Shown here in pieces: positions 2,964 through 55,813 of a stretch of 64,000 nt of DNA. Source of the stretch: Octopus sinensis (Eukaryota). The notes under the pieces are model-generated. The model was not told where the DNA came from. It did no database searches and worked only from the letters and a program-made list of their open reading frames with translations. Every line of letters begins with the position of its first letter. Positions within the stretch are counted from its first letter, which is position 1. The position numbers and the translations under genes are program-made. Where the stretch lies: positions 13,454,001 through 13,518,000 of the forward strand of contig NC_042998.1 in assembly GCF_006345805.1 (NCBI RefSeq). The letters are read 5' to 3'.

Positions 2964-5104
2964 ACCTTCAACGTTAACGAACAATTTGTCTTTTATTTAT
3001 TGTTTCAATGAACAGTAAGGATCAAATTAAAGCATATGATTTCTATTTAATGGCTATTTCTTTGCTTCCCACTCATAAAGTTCAATCACAGACGCAACAG
3101 AGCGAGAGAAAGCAAACACAAAGCAGACTCGAAAATGCATGCAGTGACTATTTTAATTATTGAAGCAACACATTTCATGCTACGTGTATTTGTATCTAAT
3201 GGAACTGGTAGGAGGGGAATCTCACGGGAATTGTTGAATGAGTTTGTGTCAAATTATTCTTGCTAGTACTATGCAGCAGACCGTGGAGAATAATATTCCA
3301 GAAATGTGGAATTAACTCGGTAGTTAAGGAGGAAAACGTCGACCATTTTAATTACAGCACCAAGTCCATTTGTTATATATTCTGAGGAGAAATAAAGATA
3401 GATGTAGAAAAAGAGTGAAAGCAGCAAACATAGATACATAGGGTCAGAAAGAAAGAGTGGTTTGAGAAATATTATAGGAAAAAATTGAAAGAAGAGAGAT
3501 AAAGACAGAGAAGTGAGGGGAGAGGAGAGGAATAACTAGATTGTGAGAGAAGGGCGGTTAAAGAGAAACAATACTACAATTTTCAATCGCTGCCCATGCA
3601 TACGTATTGTCAAGCTGCCAAGCAAGTTTCAATGCACATTTAACAGACATTCAATGACTGTTAAGTTGTTTCAGCTGTACTTTTCCCGTCTAAATCATAG
3701 AGAATATATAGATTAAAGATAGATACATTTATTTTATTTTCCATTTCGTTTGAGTTATATTTTTATTTTATTTTCCATTCCGTTTGAGATGCATATATAT
3801 TTATTTTTCTTTTAGATGTGTTGCAAGTCGTTATTACATGTAGATTCTCACATATACATATTCAAATATTATGGTAAGTAAACAAAGTTAGGCCGCGGTA
3901 CAAATGAGTTTAGAATCAGTTAATATAGACTATGCTATTTATTGGAAAATATTTGATCATCAAAAAACTTCCAGAGATTGTAATGTTTCTGAATGGTTTT
4001 AGATATAGATTGTTACGGAATGCAAATCAGAAGGAAAAGTGAAATACTAGGTCACACCAAGAGAGAGAACATAACTAGCATTCACACATACACTCGATCT
4101 CTTTGATATGTTCAAATAATATAATGTTAAGTCATGTTTATTATTTTGATGGCAATAGTTTAATAGTGCATCTTATGAGTTCTTCATGTGTAAATCTTAT
4201 GAAACGGTTTGATTCCAGTTCGCATGCATGATAAATGCCTTGGAAATAAAGAAGATAATTTTATTTCAAAGAAAAGCAGAAGTCATTTTACACAAGTATA
4301 ATGTATAGGATGCTTTTATATTATACGAAAGCAGTGTATAAAGAATATTTATTATCATTAAATTCTGAATATTGTGATGTCGTAAAATGCTTTAGCTTTT
4401 AATAAATGTTTTTAAAATGCTTCTTTTTACTACAAGCAAATGTAGAGAATATAAAATTTACATTTCTGTATAACTTCTGTCTGTTCATTAAATGATTTCC
4501 ATGTCAAGTATATTTTACATTATATGACAAGTTGTATATAAGGATATGGTATTTAAATATATCTCAGTTCGAAGAATAAATAATTCACTCATTAATCACG
4601 CGAGAATTATGTTTGATAACGACATTTATTTCGTCAGTTTGCGTCACTTTAAGCTTAACTTTTCATTATGCGTTGATATATATATGCAAATGGAGAAGAA
4701 CATAGAAAAACTAATAAAATAAATAAATGTATATAATCCATATGATGCAATAGAGGCAGCTCTTGATTACAACGTTATATGTCAAACATATCCTAAATAT
4801 ATGTATTGTTGAGAGGTTGTAGACTGCTGTGGTTGTCCAGAGAAATGCCGCTTTAATAAGTAGTGTTTTCAAGTCATTATTCTTTAAACTTAGATGAAAT
4901 TCCGTCGATGTTGCGGCTTGTCAATACCCCACAATGAAGTCACTTTCTAGAAGTTGCTTCGACCTCACTCAAGTATATAAATATTTTGAATAAACATCTC
5001 TTTAGTTTTGCAAACCAGACGCTGGTCTGAAGGAAATTCAAAGTATGCAACAGATGTAACGCTATGTTATATCTTTATCAATAAGGTACACATAACTTAT
5101 CGTT

Positions 5105-5392
5105 AGGCACATGGCCAAGTGGTTAGAGCAGCCCAATCGCGGTCGAGAGATCTCATACCGGGGGATGTGTGTGTTTATGAGCGAAACACCTAAGCTCCAC
5201 GCGGCTCCGGCAGAAGGTAATGGCGAACTTCTGCTAACACTTTCGCCACAACTTTCTATCACGCTTTCCTCCTGCATCTTGCAGTTCACCTCCGACGGAC
5301 CGGCGTCCCGTCTAGGTGGGGAACCTATACGCCAAGGAAACTGAGAAACCGGCCCTTATAATTCAGGTATGGCTCGAGAAGGAACAAACAAC
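5105..5392 (+). mobile_element. tRNA-derived SINE family E (head partly deleted)
   Basis: A-box-like TGGCCAAGTGGTTAGAGC; the 3' part CGACGGACCGGCGTCCCGTCTAGGTGGGGAACCTATACGCC...GAAACCGGCCC is shared with the family C tandem SINE; (AAC)-like tail. Confidence 0.75.
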
Positions 5393-5629
5393 ATAACTTA
5401 TACATAGGATTGAAAATCAGAGGATACAGTTGTTGTTCGAGAAAAGCCCTTTTATAGACGCAGCTTATTAAATACGCAGTGCTCTTTAGAGCTCTTAGCA
5501 TAATGAATACTGAAATCTGTTTGAGATTTTTGATTTTAAAAAAGTGTTTATTTTTAACGCAGATACAAAATGCTGTCGCTACGACGAAGCTCATACTCTG
5601 ACACAAATCGACAATTATTGTTTTTTGGC

Positions 5630-5840
5630 TCACGCCGGGCGAAATGCGTAGCCGTATTTCGTCTGCCGTTACGTTCTGAGTTCAAATCCCGCCGAGGTCG
5701 ACTTTGCCTGTCATCCTTTCGGGGTCAATTAAATAAGTACCAGATACGCACTGGGGTCAATATAATCGACTTAATCCGTGTGTCTGTCCTTGTTTGTCCT
5801 CTCTGTGTTTAGCCCCTTGTGGGTAGTAAAGAAATTGGTA
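5630..5840 (+). mobile_element. SINE family A copy
   Basis: CACGCCGGGCGAAATGC...TTCTGAGTTCAAATCCCGCCGAGGTCGACTTTGCC...; matches the units at 2441-2963. Confidence 0.85.
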
Positions 5841-6015
5841 TCATAGTAGTCGCTGTTGTGAGTTTCTCTGTCATTGTGTGTTGCTAACACGGCCGTCATT
5901 TATTTTCTTATGTGTTGTCAGAGCACTCGGTCTGCTGGTTAATCTGCTACTCTCTGCTACCTACTGTTTTTGTAACCGGTCGACTACATTCCATCTGTCG
6001 TCTGACAGTGGCGGT

Positions 6016-6350
6016 GACCCCCTTCGGTCAGACACTGACCATGGGTTTGCACATAGAGAGTTACTCTCTGAGGCACAAGTCTGGGCAAAGTTGTTTTATG
6101 TAAGACCAGCAGTCGCCCATGCATACCGGCCTCCCCTCTCCACGTCACCGATGTTGTCCAAGGAAAAGGCAAGGGCCGATACAGCTTGGCACCTGTGACA
6201 TCGCAACTCATTTCTACAGCTGAGTGAACTGGAGCAACGTGAAATAAAGTGTCTTGCTCAAGAACACAACACGCAGCCCGGTCCGTGATTCGAGCTCACA
6301 ACCTCACGATCGTAAGCTCGACGCTCTAACCACTGAGCCACGCGCCTTCA
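6016..6350 (-). mobile_element. tRNA-derived SINE family D, full length
   Basis: Minus-strand head GGCGCGTGGCTCAGTGGTTAGAGCG...TTACGAT...GAGCTCGAATC has A and B boxes and an ACG anticodon-like loop, followed by GTGTTCTTGAGCAAGACAC; second copy at 58581-58905. Confidence 0.85.
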
Positions 6351-6934
6351 GTAGGGACTGTCGGGTCAGTAGGGACTACAATGCGATAAAAGTAGCGATC
6401 TTGATCTGAAAAACCGCAAAAATAGCGTACTGTGTTTAGATCCGGTACCTCGTATGTGCGTGTGTGAGAGTGTGTGTGTTTAATGCATATTACTGTAAAT
6501 AATTTTTTGCGAGTTGTTGAACGAAAAGCACCGTCCTGTACGTAACACCTAAATACAAATCAAAATATTTTCCGAATTTGGGTATGTAGAGCAAAGATTA
6601 CTTTGTGGAATCACATTATGGTATATCATATAAAGGTTACAAGTATGAAAACGGACTCATGTGGATATTATAAGAGAACAAATGTCTTTGTAATGTCGGA
6701 CAATATATAATGATTTATTGGTAATGTACTAGAAAACACTAGACAGTTCGATGTAGAGCATATTTTATTAGAAGGAAAATGTAATTAATATACATTATTA
6801 ACATTCGATAGATATTTGTCCTTATCTTGTTTGTTGTTAACAACGTTTCGGTTGATATACCCTCCTGTCTTCTTCAGGTGTCTTGGGGAAATCTCGAACC
6901 TGGGTTCTCATTTCTAAGGTATTTTTCGATGAGG

Positions 6935-6952
6935 TTATTATTATGGTTATTA

Positions 6953-7008
<56 letters not shown>
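6935..7008. repeat. (TTA)n microsatellite inside the composite element
   Basis: Direct reading; it explains the poly-L/I/N ORFs. Confidence 0.95.
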
Positions 7009-7021
7009 GCTGTCGTTGTTG

Positions 7022-7097
7022 TTCAGGCCACTACTTGGAATCGAACTCGGAATCTTGGGGTTAGTAGCCCGCGCTCTTACCACTACGCCAAATGCCC
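7022..7097 (-). pseudogene. tRNA-like (Pol III type 2 promoter) head, not a functional tRNA
   Basis: Minus strand GGGCATTTGGCGTAGTGGTAAGAGCGCGGGCTACTAACCCCAAGATTCCGAGTTCGATTCCAAG: A box TGGCGTAGTGG, 7-nt loop CTACTAA, B box GAGTTCGATTC; acceptor and T stems pair poorly. Confidence 0.7.
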
Positions 7098-7100
7098 CAG

Positions 7101-7146
7101 GACACCTGAAGAAGGCTGGAGGGTATATCAGTCGAAACGTTGTGTT
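7101..7146 (+). ncRNA. Minimal type I hammerhead ribozyme motif (PLE-type)
   Basis: GACAC-CUGAAGA-A-GGCUG(loop)CAGUC-GAAA-CG-UU-GUGUU: 5-bp stem I, 5-bp stem II, helix III reduced to palindromic ACGU. A more decayed copy lies on the minus strand at 6838-6882. Confidence 0.7.
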
Positions 7147-10100
7147 AACAACAACCAAGATGATAACAAATATCTGTTGAATGTAAATAATGTACATAAT
7201 TCTTCATCTCTTAAATATAGAACTATAATTGATATATTTGAATATTTCGAGAGCTGAGAATAGATATTTCTTGATCATTAGGTAAGCTTTGATTAATTAT
7301 ACCAAATGCTCTACAAATATCTGAATAAAACGTCTGAGTAATTTTTCTCTGTTGTTTACTTGTTTTTGGATGTAATATGAAAATTAACACGAACGTAAGT
7401 ATGTAGTTTAAAATCTAAGAAAATTGTGATGCAAATATTCTTTAATGTTCATGCAATAATATTTTTCCGTCGGATCCCAATAATTTTCGATAGGTGTTTT
7501 GATACACAATCTGAATTTACGCAATATATTTTTTCATGATAGCTTACTTGATGTGGCTATCTATAATCTTTCTGTTATGAACAACACGAACACACGGTAA
7601 GAAGGAATATAGACACAGTAAAAAAAATCATTTCGGAAAGGAAAAATATTTGCTAAATATATTGGGTACACAGCTCCACAGCTAGGGAAATACAGTTATA
7701 TTCATATCCACATTCAAACATGCTATGAATACACCTAAGATAATGGACGATGCGTAAAGGCCAGTTCAGAGGAGTTGAACCGTGTTGGTATTCAAATTAA
7801 ATTTTGAGTCATTTGTAAACATATGAGGATCTCTTTTATATTCTTTAATGCCTTTCATTTTCTATTTCTCTCTACATCGTCTTTATGAAGCAGGCATCTT
7901 AACTTCCTCATATATGTTGCTTTGCCTAATACACAAATATATATCCAAAATAGCTGACCGACTTTTTATCCATCTATTTATTTCTTGCTGTTATGCAAAC
8001 TCTTAAGTCAGCATCGCAAATCTGATTGTCATCCTCTTGCTTAATTTCTTTCTTTTACGAAGACAGGTCGTGACACCTGTCAGTCTGCAACGAGATCTGG
8101 TCACGGAAGAGTGAAATAGAGATGTATTTAGGGATAAAGAAAATAGCTTAAACACGTCCAGTGTTATGCATTGACGGTAAATTTCAACTTCCTATTTTGA
8201 TTTATGCACGTTAGGTCGGCTGACATCGGATATATCTGCTTATGTGTCAAAAAGAAAAACAGATTAGTTTGAGAAAGGAGATTTAAGCCTGAAATATTCG
8301 CTGTCAGATATACAGCTTAAAATGTGTCCATCCAGAACATTTAGATAGCCAGAACATTTAGATGATATTGCAGGTAAAACCAATAAGTGAATGGAATTAA
8401 ATTAAAATAAGGAAAATAACGAAACAAATATACAAAACGCAGATGTTTAGCGAATTTTTTTAGCAGTATATATTCTTATATTTTTGTATTAATTAAAGTT
8501 ATGTGTAAAGTGTCTTTATTTCTTCTTATCGATTTTCATACTTATCACTTCGAACTAAGCCCAGAAGAATAATTTTCTCCGTGTCTTTTGCTTTATACCA
8601 ATGTACTGCTTTGTATTCTTTAATCAAATGAAATGCATAACATTAAAAAATGACAAAGTTGTCTATAATATATTTGTATTCGTTAACAGATTTTAATTTT
8701 CAGCCGCAGTTTCAGTTATTAAAATTCACCTCTGTAGCACCGCATGTTTCTAGTACGTCTAAAACTCTAATGGGATACCATAATGTAATTTTATATAAAC
8801 ATGTAGATATGAATATAAATTTCATGTCATTTTCGAGTTCTCTTAATTATTACTATTAAATTGATACGGGTTATTTTGTTTGGAACTTAATTTGTTTGTC
8901 TGCATTCTAAATGTTGGAGTTTACGGTGTAATACGCAGTGTAACGCTTATATGTAATACAATTCATGCACTTCATAAAATTAAACAGTACAATTTACTTG
9001 TTCTCAATGCATAGATAAAATATAGAGTAAATAAGTAATTTACGAAGTCACATCATGATAAAAACGGCGTTGAAATTTATGCATACGGGAATAAAAGCGG
9101 AATATTCGTTCTGGAATGTTTTTAGTCGTTTTGTAGGAGCAAATATATCATAGCTTCCAGAACATAACTTTATAAAATCTGACTTGGTTACTTTGATATA
9201 GAATCTGCATCTGAGATACGCTTGATATGTTCTTGACTTAATATAGAAATAAACAGCACATGCAATTGAAAAATATTGAATTTCAGTTATTTGTGGAAAA
9301 ATATTAAGTTTTATGTAACGCAAAATTCTATATTGATGATAATACGTAAAACATAACTTCGACATATATTTGAAATAGACATGATTCTATGGTATCATAT
9401 AAATATGTTATAATTTGAAATACCTCTTGATGGCAGTACACGGATTCGAAATTTAAGACTATATATATATGGTTGCCCTTTGTAAAATATTTTCTGCTGA
9501 AATTAAAATATATTAGAAGTTCATGTGAACGTATTTAAACAAAGATGTGTGACAGTGTATCTCCACTCCTGTGTTATCTGTGAAGAGTTAAACGCCTTTA
9601 TACAAGTGATATAAAATGATCGGTGTGAAGCACAAAAGACAATTTTACATGTAATTTAAGACATATCTGAGCACATTCTATCAAAACCTATAACTGATAT
9701 TTTGATAATATTCTTAAATGTACAACATTCTTCAGTTTCACATTAATTACAGATAGCAATAGCTAAATGTCTGTTTCTGAGTGTGTCCAAATACATACGA
9801 TAGTAGCCTACTTATACATAAAAGCAAAAATATCGCATTGTGGTTCACAATTTAATTATGTTCAAAATATGGTAAATCAAGAGAGGTGTATACTTGTATA
9901 ATTGGGATATATAATTGGACATTTTAAATAATTATATTAAATTCAAGTAGATTTCGAAGCTGTGTTTAGGCAAATCATTAGGAATATTATATGTTATTTT
10001 AATCGGAGCACAATTAATATTTTCAATACGTGGAGTCAGAGAGAATGAGAGGGAAAAAATCACTACTCTTAAAATAAACTTATCTTACTTGTTAACATCT

Positions 10101-26480: not shown

Positions 26481-27406
26481 GGGGGCAAGTATTTTGTGGT
26501 CAGGGTGTTAGCATCATGATCGTGAGATTGTGGTTTCGATTCCTGGACCGGGCGACGCATTGTGTTCTTGAGCAAAACACTTCATTTCACGTTGGTCCAG
26601 TCCACTCAGCTGGCAAAAATGAGTAACGCTGCGATGTACTGGAGTCCCGTCCAGCTGGGGAACACATACGCCATTGAAACCGGAAAACCGGGCCCATGAG
26701 CCTGGTTAGTGGAGGCGCGTGGCTTAGGGGTTAGGGTGTCAGCACCATGATCGTAGGATTGTGGTTTCGATTCCTGGACCTGGGGACGCATTGTGTTCTT
26801 GAGCAAAACACTTCATTTCACGTTGCTCCAGTCCACTTAGCTGGCAAAAATGAGTAACACTGCGATGGACTGGAGAACCGTCCAGCTGGGAAACACATAC
26901 GCCATTGAAACCGGAAAACCGGCCCATGAGCCTGGTTAGTGGAGGCGCGTGGCTTAGGGGTTAGGGTGTCAGCACCATGATCGTAGGATTGTGGTTTCGA
27001 TTCCTGGACCTGGGGACGCATTGTGTTCTTGAGCAAAACACTTCATTTCACGTTGCTCCAGTCCACTTAGCTGGCAAAAATGAGTAACACTGCGATGGAC
27101 TGGAGAACCGTCCAGCTGGGAAACACATACGCCATTGAAACCGGAAAACCGGGCCCATGAGCCTGGTTAGTGGAGGCGCGTGGCTTAGGGGTTAGGGTGT
27201 CAGCACCATGATCGTAGGATTGCCGTTTCGATTCCTGGACCTGGGGACGCATTGTGTTCTTGAGCAAAACACTTCATTTCACGTTGCTCCAGTCCACTTA
27301 GCTGGCAAAAATGAGTAACACTGCGATGGACTGGAGAACCGTCCAGCTGGGAAACACATACGCCATTGAAACCGGGTAACCGGGCCCATGAGCCTGGCTA
27401 GGCTTT
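26481..27406 (+). mobile_element. Tandem array of four tRNA-derived SINE family C units (~230 bp)
   Basis: Units start at ~26481, 26711, 26941 and 27172 (GGAGGCGCGTGGCTTAG..GGTTAGGG...GGTTTCGATTCC...GTGTTCTTGAGCAAAACAC); units 2-4 are nearly identical. Confidence 0.92.
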
Positions 27407-32066: not shown

Positions 32067-33304
32067 AAAATTGTGCTACTCTTTAAGTGGTGAGTTTAAC
32101 ATTTCCAAATGTGGTTTTTGCCTTATAATTTATCTGACTATTTAAATGTACGCCGTTCTTCGGTATATTCATTCATTTTTTTTATATTGGTATGTCTATA
32201 AGAGTATTATTTCCTGTCGACAATGTCAATATAAAGATGTAACTAGAAACCATTTTCAATATTCAATTACTCAAGGAGAATATACCGCGTTTTATAAGCT
32301 GATATATTTTTTATATACCCTGAACACATACGCACAATAACATACATGGATGACACCGTCACATTCATTGCAACTCATGTTCAGACAGAGCTGAGAAATT
32401 TGTTAAAAGTTTTTAAATATCTACTTTGGTAATCTCGAGTCATAGTTTGATATCGCAGAATTTTATAACTATCTCTGCCCCTGTCACTATTGTTAACAAT
32501 ATATCCTAAAGCAAATTGACTTACCTTGAAAAAGGATTGATACTAACTACAATATAATAACTATAAATGCCATGGTCAATTCCCCTCCTGCAGACAAGTA
32601 GGAGTGCCCAGAAGTATACTAGACGTCTGAAAGAGTTTCATGTCCAATATGAAAACAAAATCCAGTTAACAAAAATTACTGCATTTCAACTGAGCAATAT
32701 TAACGCCAACTACGAAAATGAATGATAGCGCCGAAATAATTGATCTGGAATTTAGACTTAATAAAATAATTATTTGTATATCGTATATCTGTGGAGTTTA
32801 TGCTTGGAGCTTACATAGAGTCAATGACAGAAAAGTAGGTTATTTAGAACAGTAACCTGAAATAAGATGGCAAACATTAGCAATTTCAAAGCAGAATATC
32901 TATCATAATCGGGGGTGAATCATTCTGCGTTTATACAATATGTGTGTAACGCATATTTCGAATATCGTTGATATTCCATCATAAAATATTGACATTACTT
33001 ATAATTTACTTTAACACGCATAGATGTTATGCAAATTTAATAACTTACAATTTCCATTTATAACCATTATAATACATTCTTCTATACCGCAAGTACACAG
33101 ATTGAAGATCACCCCCATACAACTTTTTTCAAAATTATTTCATTATCGCTTCAGACACCGTATAACTTCAACGAATGAATTGCATCAAATTTGATATTAG
33201 ATTGCCACCGAATACTGCTATACATACATAAATAGATACATATGTGTGTGAACGTGTGTATGCGTGTGTGTGCGTATGTGTGTGTGTATATATGTGTCTG
33301 TATA

Positions 33305-33344
<40 letters not shown>

Positions 33345-33349
<5 letters not shown>

Positions 33350-33536
33350 TAAATATTAGGGAATATATCCAAATTTACAGGGAAATTTGTAACTGAATTA
33401 TTGGAAGTCCACCTGAAGATTGTCGATCAAGACAAGAAACGATTGTAGTGGCGTTTTTTTGACTATTTATTAAATTTTATGTATTGATTAAGTCTTTCCT
33501 TGTTTGTTTTGCAAAATAGTGGTTTTGTCTCAAATA

Positions 33537-33544
<8 letters not shown>
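33345..33544 (+). mobile_element. 200-bp minimal member of the 52-kb HHR element family, inserted in (TA)n
   Basis: 33345-33385 matches 52051-52091 directly; 33400-33544 is the reverse complement of ~52135-52282; (TA)n on both sides. Confidence 0.85.
33409..33451 (+). ncRNA. Canonical type I hammerhead ribozyme
   Basis: CCAC-CUGAAGA-UUGUC(GAUCAA)GACAA-GAAA-C(GAUU)G-UA-GUGG: full CUGANGA/GAAA/UH core, 4-bp stem I, 5-bp stem II, short stem III; predicted cleavage after GUA (33447). Confidence 0.85.
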
Positions 33545-33582
<38 letters not shown>

Positions 33583-33634
33583 CATATATATGTATATATA
33601 TATATATATATATATACATATACATACACACACA

Positions 33635-33745
<111 letters not shown>

Positions 33746-36004: not shown

Positions 36005-36432
36005 CTTTTTCTTTCACTCCTTGACTTGTTTTAGTCATTTGTCTGCGGCCATGCTGGATCACCGCCTTTAGTCGAGCAAGTCGACCCAAGGACTTATTCT
36101 TTGTAAGCCTAGTACGTATTCTATCGGGCCCCGAAAGGATGAAAGGCAAAGTCGACCTCGGCGGAATTTGAACTCAGAACATAGCGGCAGACAAAATACC
36201 TATTTCTTTATTACCCACAAGGGGCTAAACACAGAGGGGACAAACAAGGACAGACATAGGTATTAGGTCGATTACATCGACCCCAGTGCGTAACTGGTAC
36301 TTAATTTATCGACCCCGAAAGGATGAAAAGCAAAGTCGACCTCGGCGGAATTTGAACTCAGAACATAGCGGCAGACAAAATACCGCTAAACATTTCGCCT
36401 GGTGTGCTAACGTATCTGTCAACTCGCCGCCT
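36005..36432 (-). mobile_element. Chimeric SINE: family A head, duplicated A unit, family B 3' tail
   Basis: 36128-36432 is family A, with CCCCGAAAGGATGAAA...GAACATAGCGGCAGACAAAATACC present twice; 36005-36127 is the family B tail (AGTCATTTG..TGCGGCCATGCTGG..CACCGCCTTTAGTCGAGCAA). Confidence 0.85.
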
Positions 36433-44350: not shown

Positions 44351-45584
44351 TCAGGTCATCCCATAAGTTCTGTCCTAATTTTGAATAACAAAAACAAGTA
44401 ATCAAATGTTATATTTAATTGAAATTTAATCATCAATTTACCAGCTTTTTAATCCCATCACTATAAAATTCTTTTGGATTCAAGGCGAAGAATTCAGAAA
44501 TGTCAATTTCGACCTCCTCCGGGCTTGCGAAGGTTATATCCCCAAAAGATTCTGTAAACTACGAAACAAATGGTAGTCTGAAGGAGCAACGTCGAGAGAA
44601 TAAGTTTCAACCAAGCTCTTTGATCTTCTGTGATGTGATCTTTGCAGTGTTGATTCACGCATTGTTCTGATGAAACATTACTCCTTTTCGATTCACTAAA
44701 GCGGGTCTTCTTTTCTTCAAAGCTTGGTTCAAACGCTTTAATTGCTGACAGTAGACTTGAGCATTGATAGTTGCATTAAGTGGTAACATTTCAAAGTGAA
44801 TTACTCCTTTGAAATCCGGCCAGATAGAGAGAAGAACCTTTTCCCATTAAGTTCCCTTCTCGGTTGTTGTTAAGTTTTTTCCCTTTTACCAAGCCACTAT
44901 TTACGACGTTTAACATTTCGATAGAAGATCCATTTTTCTTCACCAGTCACAAGTTATCCAAACAGGGTGAAATGAGTTCGCGATAATGGAGAGAAGAACA
45001 GATGTCAACTGGAGATTTGTGTTTGCCCTCGGACAATTCATGAGGCACCCATTTTCCAAGTTTAGGAAGCTTTCCAAGTTGTTGGAGATGACGATGAACA
45101 GTTTTATCGTTTGAGCTAAGTTTCATTTCCAATTATTCAACTGATAATGCAGGATTCTCTAAAAGTAATGCCTCAAGGAGCTTGTCATAAAACCCAATTG
45201 AACATCCTGTTCAATCTTCATCTTCGAGGCTGAAATCTCCACTTCTGAATTTTGCAAACCATCTTCTGCAAGTTTTTTCATTCAAGCATTCTTTCCCATA
45301 AACTGAGTGTATGTTTCGAGGCGCTTCGGCTGCAAAGTTCTTTTTTTTTTTGTACTCATAAAGCATTATGTACCTTAAATGTTCTTTGGATACTTCCATG
45401 TTAGAAAGGTTTTTAATCAAAGAAATTTTAATTCTATTATTTCTTTAAAATAATATTTAACTAGTTTAAATGTACACAAATGCATAAAAATAATTTTTAA
45501 TTCCATAAGGCATTCTAAAATACTATTAAATTTCATACAAATTTAAGAAAGATAAAATCGGAGAGAAATAATGGAATGACTTGA
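44351..45584 (-). mobile_element. Mariner (Tc1/mariner) transposon, near full length, inactive
   Basis: Diverged TIRs TCAGGTCATCCCATAAGTTCTGTCC / TCAAGTCATTCCATTATTTCTCTCC flanked by TA; internal transposase remnant. Confidence 0.92.
44420..45399 (-). pseudogene. Mariner transposase pseudogene
   Basis: MEVSKEHLRYIMLYEY...RRWFAKFRSGDFSLED, GKWVPHEL, TGEEKWIFY, FHQNNA, DVAPSDYHLFRSLQN; multiple frameshifts and stops. Confidence 0.92.
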
Positions 45585-51898: not shown

Positions 51899-52230
51899 AG
51901 TGATTCCAAGATATTATCCCTGTACGTACACTACATGATATATATATATATATATCTATATATGTATCTCTCGCTCTCTCTATATATATATAGAAATATA
52001 TATAATATATATATATATATATAATATATATATAATATATATATATATATAATAATAAATATTAGGGAATAAATCCAAATTTACAGGGAAAAAATCAGAT
52101 TTAGGATTAAAATCCCATTTTATAGTAAAATATTATAAAATATTATTAGAGACAAAACCACTATTTTGCAAAACAAACAAGGAAAGACTTAATCAATACA
52201 TAAAATTTTAATAAATAGTAAAAAAAACCG

Positions 52231-52273
52231 CCACTACAATCGTTTCTTGTCTTGATCGACAATCTTCAGGTGG
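52231..52273 (-). ncRNA. Canonical type I hammerhead ribozyme (identical to 33409-33451)
   Basis: Reverse complement reads CCACCTGAAGATTGTCGATCAAGACAAGAAACGATTGTAGTGG. Confidence 0.85.
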
Positions 52274-53471
52274 ACTTCCAATCTAAAAAATCAAAATTTT
52301 AAAATATAAAAATAATAATTTTAAAATAATTAAAGTATGAATGAAAAAATATAAGTATATAATCATATATAACCTATATATAATCCATATATAATCAATA
52401 TATAAACAATATATAAACTAAAAAAAACCTATCAACAATTAAATATAAAATATAAAATATAAAATATAAAATATAAAATATAAAACAAAACAAAAAATAA
52501 AAAATAATAATAATATAATAATAAACTATATATACACCCATACACATATACCTAATTATATATGACCATCTAACTACATACACTAAATCACACACCTATA
52601 TATATCCCCATACATACACATAAAAACGTCTAGGCAACTATAAATAAATAAAATAGCTAAATACTTCACACAATACTTATTCATACTCCCACACACACAC
52701 ACATACAACCCACATTCACGCTCTAGAAAACGGACATCACTCAAAACTATGAACGGAGAATGGAATAAATGGAATTAAAAATTATATTCACTGGTAAAAC
52801 GAACACTACTTAAAAATTATGAATGAAACAATGCAATAAAACAACAGACATCGCAAATAGACACAAATTACTACGAATTCCTTAACAAACCTACCATGAT
52901 AAACCAAAACTCATAAAAACATATAATGATAAAATCTCCCTTTACTAAACTCTAAAACAAACCTATATAGCAATCCCCCTAACCTAAACATTCACACACA
53001 AATACACACACGTAAAACACACACCCACGACATATACAATACCCACACCACTTACACATACCAATACATACATATAAACCTCAACATATACTCCAAAAAC
53101 CACTCAACCCCACACAGACAATAAACACAAAAATTATGAATGGATTCTTTTATAAAACTACCATGATAAGCTAAAACTCACAAAACAGAAATGATAAAAC
53201 CTCCCTTTACTAAACACTATAACATACTTATATAGCAATCCCTTTAACCTATACATTCACACACAAAAACTCACACGTAAACCACACACCATAAAAAATA
53301 CAAACACCCCCCCACTCACACACACCACAAGTACATATAAGCCTCAACATATACACCAAACAAAATTACTTTACCAAGGAACTTAACATATGTATAAAAA
53401 GTATAACCGCTCTCGAAACGAACATCTCTAAAATAATGAATGGAGAAATGGAATAAATGGAATAAAAATAA

Positions 53472-55411
53472 TATTCACGTGGCAAAACGAACACCACTCA
53501 AAAATTATGAATGAAACAATGTAATAAAACAACCAACATCGAAAATAGCAAATTACCACGAATTCCCTAAAAAAACATGATAAACCAAAACTCTTAAAAA
53601 CATATAACGATAAAATCTCCCTTGCTAAACTCTATAACAAACCTATATAGTAATCCCCCAACCTAAACATTTACACACAAATACACACACGTAAACCACA
53701 GACCCACGACTTATACACATACCTATACTAACTTATAAACCTCAATATACACCAAAACCCACTCCCTCCCCACACAGACAAATTAACACATACATCCCAA
53801 AACCTAAATAACAAACCATATACACAGTACACAACACACACACCACACGCAAAACACACACACACAACAGATACATATACTCCCTCACATATACGCATAT
53901 ACATACTCACTAAACTCGATATATACAACAATTTACACACCCACACTCATACAGATAAATAAATTATACAACTAAAAACTCACACACAATCTCATATACA
54001 AAAACTCCTATGAAACAAACATTAAATACATCGTAATTAACCAGAATATCAAAAATAACAATATGACATAAGGATAAATAAAATACATACTTACAAGTCA
54101 GTTTCAAATTATGAAGTGAAATTAAATTCTTAGCCGTTAAAAAAACCAAACCAAAATTACGTTACCATAGAAAAAACTAATGTAAAAAAAAGAATACGCG
54201 CCATAGAAAGTAAACGTCATTTAAATTATGAATGGAGAAATAGAATAAATGGAACTAAAAACTATATCCACGTAGCAAACCAACACTACTTAAAAAAATT
54301 TATTATGAATGGATTCTTTAAAAAACTACCATGAAAAATCATTATATACATTTATGAGCTTTAGCTCACCTTAGCAGCTCTAACAAACAACTTGCAGTAA
54401 ACCCAAACCCATTCTCTAGCCTACCTCACTACTACACTATTCCATTCACAATTCCAAGCAACGCTAGTCCACACCCCCGGTTATTCACGTGGCAAAACGA
54501 ACACCACCACTCAAAAATTATGAATGAAACAATGTAATAAAACAACCAACATCGAAAATAGACAAATTACCACGAATTCCCTAAAAAAAAAAAAAAAAAA
54601 TGATAACCAAAACTCATAAAAACATTTATAACGATAAAATCTCCCTTTTGCTTAACTCTATAACAAACCTATATAGCAATCCCCCTAACCTAAACATCAC
54701 ACAAAAATACACACACGTTAACCACAGACCCACGACTTATACACATACCTATACTAACTTATAAACCTCAATATACACCAAAACCCACTCCCTCCCCACA
54801 CAGACAAATTAACACATAATCCCAAAACCTAATAACAAACCCATATACACATTCACACACAAACACAACACACGCAAAACACACACACAACAGATACAAT
54901 ATAATCCCTCACATATACGCAATACATACTCACTAAACTCGATAATATACAACAATATTTACACACCCACACCATACAGATAAATAAATTTACAAATAAA
55001 AACTCACACCACAATCTCATATACATAACACTCCTATGAAAAAACATTAAATACATCGTAATTAACCAGAATATCAAAAATAACAATATGACATAAGGAT
55101 AAATAAAACATACTTACAAGTCAGTTTCAAATTATGAAGTGAAATTAAATTCTTATGCCGTTAAAAAAACCAAACCAAAATTACGTTACCATAGCAAATA
55201 ACTAATGTAACAAAAAAGATACGCGCCCATAAGAAAGTAACGTCATTTAAATTATGAATGGAGAATTAGAATAAATGGCACAAAACTATATCCACGTAGC
55301 AAACAACACTACTAAAAAAATTTATTATGAAGGATTCTTTAAAAAAAACATGAAAAATCATTATATACATTTATGAGCTGTAGCTCACCTTAGCAGCTCT
55401 AACAAACAACT
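53472..55411. repeat. ~1010-bp-period direct duplication inside the 52-kb element
   Basis: 53472-54391 matches 54482-55411 (TATTCACGTGGCAAAACGAACACC ... CTTAGCAGCTCTAACAAACAACT); an older partial copy lies at ~52745-53130. Confidence 0.9.
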
Positions 55412-55813
55412 GGCGGTTTTTTTGACTATTTATTAAAATTTTATGTATTGATTAAGTCTTTCCTTGTTTGTTTTGCAAATAGTGGTTTTGTCTCTAATAA
55501 TATTTTATATATATATATATATATATGTATACATGAATACGTATATATGTGTGTATATGCGTGCATGTGTATATGCGAGAGTTTAGGCAAGCAAAATGCA
55601 AAGAAATAGGTTAACTTATAAGTAATAACCTATATACACACATAAAATTACAAATTGTGTTGAGTACTAATCTGAAATGGAGCATTCAGAGTTTTGCAAT
55701 GGATGCCTACTTAAATCTCTAGGTTTCTTGCACACGTTCTTTCTCTGGCGCGCTGTCTTTCTTCCATTCTCTTACTGTATTTCCATTAATGCATACACAC
55801 ACGCACACACATA

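Follow-up and report, generated by a model that had tools for sequence, protein, structure and literature searches.

The two hammerhead motifs found in the analysed window, a 64-kb stretch of Octopus sinensis DNA, very probably lie at the ends of Penelope-like element (PLE) insertions that lack an ORF, with a spliced mRNA as the source of copy 1 and an unspliced transcript as that of copy 2. Copy 2 keeps an intron that is missing from copy 1 with exact boundaries, and therefore copy 1 likely came from spliced mRNA. PLEs have long been described as intron-keeping, yet most of the time these elements likely bring spliced mRNA back into the genome. Dispersed and opposite-strand copies of PLE hammerheads are already known, while the splice junction beside the motif is new. 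A wider reading, for and against which we consider the chances to be balanced, is that PLEs routinely reverse-transcribe their own spliced sense mRNA, as well as host mRNAs spliced to their acceptor, twice per molecule, that most insertions of these families are processed, ORF-less palindromic stubs, and that intron retention reflects survivor bias caused by priming sites upstream of the ORF.

The 43-nt motif at 33409-33451 (plus strand) is identical to that at 52231-52273 (minus strand), as the first-pass annotation had noticed, and exact identity between the copies extends over 54 nt (33400-33453). A scan for CTGANGA...GAAA requiring stem II returned these two hammerhead-shaped motifs and no others in the 64-kb window. 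The earlier claim of an intact core also holds, since CUGANGA, GAAA, a UH cut site and three helices are all there. Read from the sequence, stem I is CCAC/GUGG (4 bp) followed by CUGAAGA, stem II is UUGUC/GACAA (5 bp) followed by GAAA, and stem III has, as had been described, only 2 bp (A-U and C-G) closing a GAUU loop; the cleavage triplet is GUA, with the predicted cut positions listed below. Next to the core stands a U-A pair in place of G10.1-C11.1, which is highly conserved according to Cervera and De la Pena, and the corresponding position in sister families reads A-U, U.U, A.A, A.C or A.G, often unpaired. Rfam gave nothing at gathering score in the whole window, none of its 37 matches at E<=10 in 33200-33700 was a hammerhead, and the 43-mer folded no better than shuffled sequences (z -0.70). 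In an alignment of seven hammerhead sequences, 97% of stem cells are paired. By its core and helices the motif is a type I minimal hammerhead and a predicted ribozyme.

Insertions of this element consist of head-to-head arms in (TA)n, which end at about +152 (X) or about +221 (Y) from the motif start, and both X and Y lie between the hammerhead and the ATG of the ORF, which is further downstream. The parts of the two insertions in the window are as follows.

33345..33385, minus strand: short arm of copy 1, holding only the final ~41 nt of the PLE tail, down to Y in (TA)n; the tails of copy 2 and of the full unit have a matching end
33384..33399, plus strand: 3' part of exon 1 of copy 1, TA/A subfamily variant, joined straight to exon 2
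33400..33408, plus strand: first 9 nt of exon 2 of copy 1, which come after the TTTTAG acceptor in intron-keeping copies
33409..33451, plus strand: hammerhead motif of copy 1, predicted cut after 33447
33452..33544, plus strand: tail of copy 1 to X, then (TA)n
52051..52230, minus strand: full tail of copy 2 to Y, then (TA)n; equivalent to the leader ahead of the ORF in tandem units
52231..52273, minus strand: hammerhead motif of copy 2, predicted cut after 52235
52274..52282, minus strand: first 9 nt of exon 2 of copy 2
52283..54094, minus strand: retained intron of copy 2, 1,812 nt, from GTAAGT at 54094 to TTTTAG at 52283
54095..54117, minus strand: exon 1 of copy 2, 23 nt, with the putative start at the A of TCACTT (54117)
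54118..55410, minus strand: remaining non-coding 3' region of copy 2, 5'-truncated, no ORF
55411..55507, plus strand: inverted second arm of copy 2, 97 nt, ending at X, then (TA)n

Copy 1 joins a 41-nt Y arm to a spliced X arm, the AA at 33384-33385 being common to both, and copy 2 joins a 3.36-kb Y arm to the 97-nt X arm. The two tails differ, in line with the first-pass annotation, by two substitutions and two single-base indels. Copy 2 corresponds to positions 4163-7520 of a 7,299-bp unit, beyond the ORF, which stops at 2792, and its non-coding 3' region contains an internal duplication of ~1 kb that carries a second donor at 55117. PLE proteins gave no tblastn match in the window, and neither copy holds ORF sequence. 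The inverted arm of copy 2 begins 1 nt beyond the predicted cut site, which we treat as chance because arm ends show no cut-site excess. The sense strand of the copy 2 intron is composed of 49% T, 24% G and 5% C and is built of internal repeats, and this composition explains the strong skews at 52-56 kb. A hyper-edited one-off was considered for the skewed body of copy 2 and dropped, since this 3.1-kb body is itself a genomic repeat, with copies 97-99% identical.

The homology between the copies breaks at ATTGGAAGT, where the first-pass annotation saw diverged upstream sequence; by its letters, this point is instead an exon-intron boundary and the break a splice junction. In copy 2, a pyrimidine tract and AG stand upstream of ATTGGAAGT, and a GTAAGT donor lies 1,812 nt further, at 54094. 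In copy 1, the donor-preceding letters run directly into ATTGGAAGT, with the GT-AG intron precisely absent, and the same exon-1 letters precede a GTAAGT donor in the intron-keeping loci L074, L076, L087, L116 and L123. The spliceosomal features found in the DNA are a GT donor, a pyrimidine tract, an AG acceptor and exact excision.

Genome-wide, intron retention holds for long PLE copies but not for most exact junctions, of which 1,429 are spliced and 625 intron-keeping; this ratio is approximate, as it counts arms, and the intron-keeping pattern spans a homopolymer and misses a variant acceptor. A positional sample of 97 arms, taken from 60 loci around the core matches that come first in the list for contig C1, contained 51 spliced arms, three spliced at a donor 4 nt downstream (+4), 30 intron-keeping arms and 13 short or odd ones. 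Three exon-1/tail haplotypes (subfamilies), with introns of ~1.3, 1.82 and 1.81 kb, each occur in both spliced and intron-keeping form, copy 1 belonging to the first haplotype and copy 2 to the third, and the +4 alternative donor is used in two subfamilies. The exon-2 leader holds one upstream ATG and the intron 49.

Two sister families were examined by searching the exon-1-like stretch alone and then reading the sequence that follows, with donors predicted beforehand. In family 2 (178 matches), 27 of 30 loci were spliced, two carried an AG|GTATGT donor, one of which has its acceptor 1,464 nt on, and one was of another kind. Family 3 (225 matches) gave 24 spliced loci and six donors among 30. 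Moreover, host exons were found at the same acceptor. In locus L121 (C1:96556950-96560450), two host exons, from which a 69-kb GT-AG intron has been removed, are joined exactly to PLE exon 2, and this captured host transcript was inserted as two head-to-head arms. The source exons (L229 and L231) lie at C1:88.52 and 88.59 Mb, and the second ends at a GTAAGT donor; the PLE acceptor that captured them was not found in the 400 kb downstream. Other foreign sequences abut the exon-2 start at L163:620-900 as well as in L151 and L178, and in L163 the same open frame ending ...GAAG is present on both arms, probably as another captured exon. On both arms of L102, exon 1 runs into a position that lies 9 nt before the acceptor and is not preceded by AG, which suggests a template switch or an unusual splice.

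No sequencing run recorded as RNA contains the stretch. Copy 1 is covered by contigs from four runs, three of them guessed to be RNA and one of unknown kind, and one of these contigs shows the +4-donor junction; genomic spliced copies could be the source in both cases. A literature search, with subscription papers mostly outside its reach, returned no report of spliced genomic PLE copies.

The extent of the spliced arms points to a transcription start at the A of TCACTT. The 80 loci L068-L147, 20 of which were selected for their junction pattern, contain 72 spliced arms; 60 of these reach no more than 23 nt before the donor, and 12 reach exactly 23 nt, which is this A. Another 12 spliced arms are longer: four belong to one duplicated insertion (L140), five result from TA-repeat run-on, and three have variant upstream sequence. 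L140 is spliced yet truly extends past the putative start site, so read-through RNA can also be spliced. In family 2, 26 of 27 spliced arms extend no more than 27 nt, with seven at exactly 27 nt, again at the A of TCACTT.

The two arms of an insertion share their form. Among 44 head-to-head pairs (two of them tandem duplicates), 42 combine X with Y. The arms agree in splice form in 36 of 36 pairs (eight unclassifiable pairs dropped), in tail variant in 42 of 42, in loop 3 in 40 of 40 and in exon-1 variant in 22 of 22, each agreement exceeding all 20,000 shuffles, and the rare forms in L102, L108, L121 and L163 are found on both arms. Part of this agreement could come from repair between arms. 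In copy 1 the two arms have no sequence in common, which rules out that one is a fold-back copy of the other. In L148-L187, many arms have no hammerhead and begin in an AT-rich stretch ~50-70 nt after the motif start, where truncation looks, by eye, denser than within the motif.

Longer loci are tandem 7,299-bp units arranged as exon 1, intron, exon 2 with the hammerhead, tail and ORF. The ORF starts 276 nt after the motif, stops at position 2,792 of the unit and has the motif order DKTRN, IQIDID, MGAPDS, GLYRDD, CTCRDKSNC, VVYKC...YIGST, CYLC and CRH, from which it is predicted to encode a reverse transcriptase (RT), a CxCX5C linker and, at the C-terminal end, a GIY-YIG domain. Its frames are broken, through decay or assembly error, in all of the fetched copies, the longest PLE frame being 560 aa. 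The ORF has 48 homologues among 7,994 scored candidates. Pfam recognised neither RT nor GIY-YIG on the element's own pieces, GIY-YIG was found by Pfam in two of 20 aligned relatives, and sequence searches of the ORF against Pfam and PDB gave nothing informative. In a fold search with a predicted model (pTM 0.32), the top 50 matches were all RTs or RT complexes, though weak (best E 0.027). The layout is that of EN+ PLEs, with partial tandems, an inverted truncated arm, an optional tail and a hammerhead in the terminal repeat, and the (TA)n target was confirmed at insertions. Motifs of the Hydra clade, as described in section 11 of PMC8557442, are also present: SDKTRN (DKT), CTCRDKSNC (CxCX5C), CYLC (CxxC) and CRH (CxH), with no CCHH. 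On these motifs and on by-eye likeness to the supplement alignments, the element appears to be a Hydra-clade PLE. A candidate counterpart of the clade's N-terminal RWK motif is RIKWK, which lines up with RMRWK of a homologue. A Neptune/Nematis assignment was replaced by Hydra once the published Hydra motifs were compared. An asparagine-rich insert of ~100 aa between RT thumb and linker (L061:184-1863, residues ~211-323) is missing from most homologues, and similar inserts are reported for rotifer Penelopes (PMC3846280). As well, L085 contains, at 3025-4371 (minus strand), a 449-aa frame that belongs to another Hydra-like PLE family.

We propose that transcription would begin at the A of TCACTT and that the intron would be spliced out to give an mRNA. 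The RT-endonuclease would then nick (TA)n on both strands and copy one RNA from X and from Y. Copied in this way, spliced mRNA would yield only an ORF-less stub of at most ~255 nt, because X and Y precede the ATG of the ORF. Long and full-length copies would derive from RNA that reads through tandem units and is mostly unspliced, so that intron retention in viable PLEs may be survivor bias, for which an antisense template is unnecessary. The hammerhead would act as a weak dimer-type ribozyme, with loop 3 pairing with a second sense copy. In vitro, an Anolis PLE was shown to use internal start sites, to cut two strands and to insert without needing cleavage (PMC11167929). The reason why PLEs keep introns is stated to be unknown in PMC8557442, and PMC3846280 leaves open whether the template is antisense or unspliced sense RNA; priming sites ahead of the ORF would offer a simple geometric explanation for the former. 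The findings also show that host exons can be turned into processed copies by PLEs. If the wider reading is true, the stubs preserve, like fossils, the element's start site, its splice variants and the host exons that it captured. The start site, splice forms, two priming points and loop-3 variants also define exact constructs for priming and ribozyme tests.

A template of antisense RNA with self-priming, which the discussion in PMC3846280 proposes for retained introns and head-to-head arms, has a very small probability as the general route here. Palindromic head-to-head junctions are indeed the rule in this element too, but antisense RNA cannot hold the sense-strand GT-AG excisions that form the majority here, and arms with no common sequence, as in copy 1, are impossible by self-priming. 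For the spliced copies an antisense template is excluded, since spliced sense RNA accounts for most exact junctions in three families. It is also very improbable that the intron-less copies form a separate non-autonomous family, similar to SINEs or retrozymes, that arose once, through deletion or splicing, and then multiplied by itself. The intron-less copies are in the majority, short and uniform, and metazoan retrozymes do bear type I hammerheads (PMC7229834). However, exact excision is found on three haplotypes that are also present with the intron, it recurs in two sister families with different donors, alternative donors and host exons meet the same acceptor, and the arms stand head to head rather than as direct tandem monomers, by which this explanation is largely refuted. 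Copying of spliced sense mRNA is the reading that we retain for these stubs.

The first-pass annotation took the identity of the two motifs to mean that either the family is young or the ribozyme is constrained. The family is young, with 0.2-0.45% substitutions per site across 23 arms that were chosen by element body. Constraint is not borne out by the pair identity, since across these 23 arms substitutions occur at 2 of 989 motif sites and 10 of 2208 tail sites (P=0.36), so that core and tail, whose divergence had been proposed for comparison, do not differ in substitutions. With indels included, the motif has fewer changes than the tail (P=0.02), homopolymer runs being located in the tail. 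Between families, a tail stretch of ~55 nt is conserved as strongly as the core, and the core-versus-tail comparison therefore does not single out the ribozyme. The 29-nt core pattern has 1,772 exact matches in the genome (reversed control, none), far above chance, a looser hammerhead pattern 4,594 (control, one) and a tail 25-mer 5,594. In a DNA search of the octopus's own genome, which returned 1,088 candidates, nearly all of the 40 scored were 97-100% identical over motif and tail. Two copies per window are unremarkable, as ~17 such windows would be expected genome-wide, assuming 1,200 insertions. The identity of the pair is thus explained by youth, reflecting recent amplification.

There is correspondingly a very faint prospect of local constraint on this particular pair and of an action on host pre-mRNA, whether through cleavage or a 19-kb duplex. 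In its favour are the identical motifs, two arms complementary over ~144 nt and the lower number of total changes in the motif across copies. Against it, the exact copies number 1,772 genome-wide, substitutions alone do not differ between motif and tail, and copies 1 and 2 belong to different subfamilies and splice forms. No host exon was recognised in the window, and 106 window ORFs, filtered for length and complexity, gave no host family above the Pfam cut-off, only a transposase piece. With the copies on opposite strands, one transcript would hold one sense and one antisense copy, and a ribozyme dimer within it is ruled out; pairing between sense and antisense copies would mask the ribozyme. 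Long-range pairing of copies 1 and 2 is possible on paper, but an inverted arm belonging to copy 2 itself lies 3.2 kb from it. A host-gene role for the motif pair finds no support. Since copy 2 keeps its putative promoter and an acceptor of working type, read-out from the minus strand or exon trapping is possible.

According to the first-pass annotation, hammerheads with a weak stem III often cleave as dimers. The weak stem III of the motif fits a dimer-type hammerhead, as do self-complementary variants of loop 3. In a hand count of the first 100 of the 4,594 loose-pattern matches, loop 3 was GATT in 56, AATT in 30, ATTT in nine, GATC in three and other in two, and it was self-complementary, with G-U allowed, in 89. 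The window's GATT lies between two fully palindromic forms, which is what a dimer helix would predict, and the predicted loop-3 duplexes have energies of -5.8 and -6.4 kcal/mol. Among the same 100 matches, position 7 and loop 2 vary, UGUC/GACA is nearly constant, and the pair adjoining the core shows no constraint. As to a ribozyme gated by splicing, spliced contexts favoured the active fold ~4-100-fold at 37 C with just 20 nt downstream, an effect that was gone with longer context. Covariation in the seven-sequence alignment was not above shuffles (139/500). A candidate compensatory change in stem II was rejected, being a single pair, not above shuffles and unpaired in other families.

We lean towards weak cleavage, assisted by dimerisation or by a protein, and the hammerhead is likely to be uncut, as a rule, in the RNAs that get copied. 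A possible though less favoured view is that the fold is kept as a signal for dimerisation or protein binding and cleaves rarely or never in vivo. It would suit the arm ends, which show no pile-up at the cut site (10 ending exactly there against 12 at a control two bases upstream, and three of 10 arms starting at the cut are mutated full motifs), the copied RNAs that run through the motif intact, the lack of a G10.1-C11.1 pair, an active monomer fold predicted at <1% in nearly all contexts, and the Anolis PLE, whose insertion in vitro did not require cleavage and which gave no RNA-seq ends at the cut (PMC11167929). On the other hand, the families share the core letters, the UA cut site and the stems, a conservation that is partly fixed by the search pattern, with position 7 and loop 2 varying freely; the Anolis hammerhead cleaved once protein was added (PMC11167929), a Schistosoma hammerhead cleaved weakly as a dimer (PMC4209133), and cut RNAs may simply escape copying.

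Among known systems, the Hydra clade (Craig et al. 2021, PMC8557442), which includes Hydra-1_Obim, resembles the octopus element in DKT, CxCX5C, GIY-YIG without CCHH, CxxC/CxH and the (TA)n target, as well as in the terminal-repeat hammerhead and in having tandem and inverted truncated copies that bear a tail. However, the clade is described there with a unit of <3 kb and a tail of 30-40 nt, whereas the octopus element has a 7.3-kb unit, with a 4.5-kb non-coding region and a 1.3-1.8-kb intron, a tail of ~70 nt, an N-rich ORF insert and KWK for RWK; the hammerhead sequence published for Hydra-1_Obim also differs from the window motif. Head-to-head insertion structures and opposite-strand hammerhead pairs from truncated PLEs are described in PMC4209133 and PMC3846280, and dispersed, opposite-strand PLE hammerheads were reported in 2014. 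Similar to the hammerheads in PMC4209133, the present motif has a short helix I, a palindromic helix III and many single or opposite-strand copies, near-identical as in a currently invading family; it differs from them in its helix II of 4-5 bp and in having no G10.1-C11.1 by the core. The D. virilis intron end adjoins helix I according to the same paper, while the octopus acceptor lies 9 nt before it.

D. virilis Penelope (Schostak et al. 2008, PMC2377424) is alike in the start site and intron inside the pLTR and in an upstream copy driving the downstream ORF, and most of its transcripts are spliced in D. virilis. Its intron, as reported, is 75 bp long and begins 46 bp after the start, compared with 1.3-1.8 kb after 23 nt in the octopus, and its genomic copies are described as keeping the intron, which most octopus arms do not. 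Anolis Poseidon PAc (Frangieh et al. 2024, PMC11167929) shares two internal RT starts that define the tail, an AT-rich target cut on both strands and an uncleaved RNA template. The PAc starts are placed inside the ORF and are non-homologous to the target, whereas X and Y lie before the ATG, are AT-rich and blend into (TA)n. Metazoan non-LTR retrozymes (Cervera and De la Pena 2020, PMC7229834) are likewise short non-coding repeats with type I hammerheads and thousands of copies. They are described as direct tandem monomers of 150-450 nt bounded by the cut site, which the octopus copies are not; unlike retrozymes, the octopus arms are inverted and bounded by the putative transcription start and two putative priming points.

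Finally, other repeats are present in the window. A fragment of Transposase_1 (mariner-type DDE) was identified at 44658-44846 on the minus strand (E 7.7e-16). Two tandem arrays look SINE-type, one at 26498-27401 with 231-bp units (3.9 copies, 96%) and the other at 2451-2919 with 184-bp units, and relatives of these SINE-like repeats occur near 5650, 19400, 36150-36430 and 51800.
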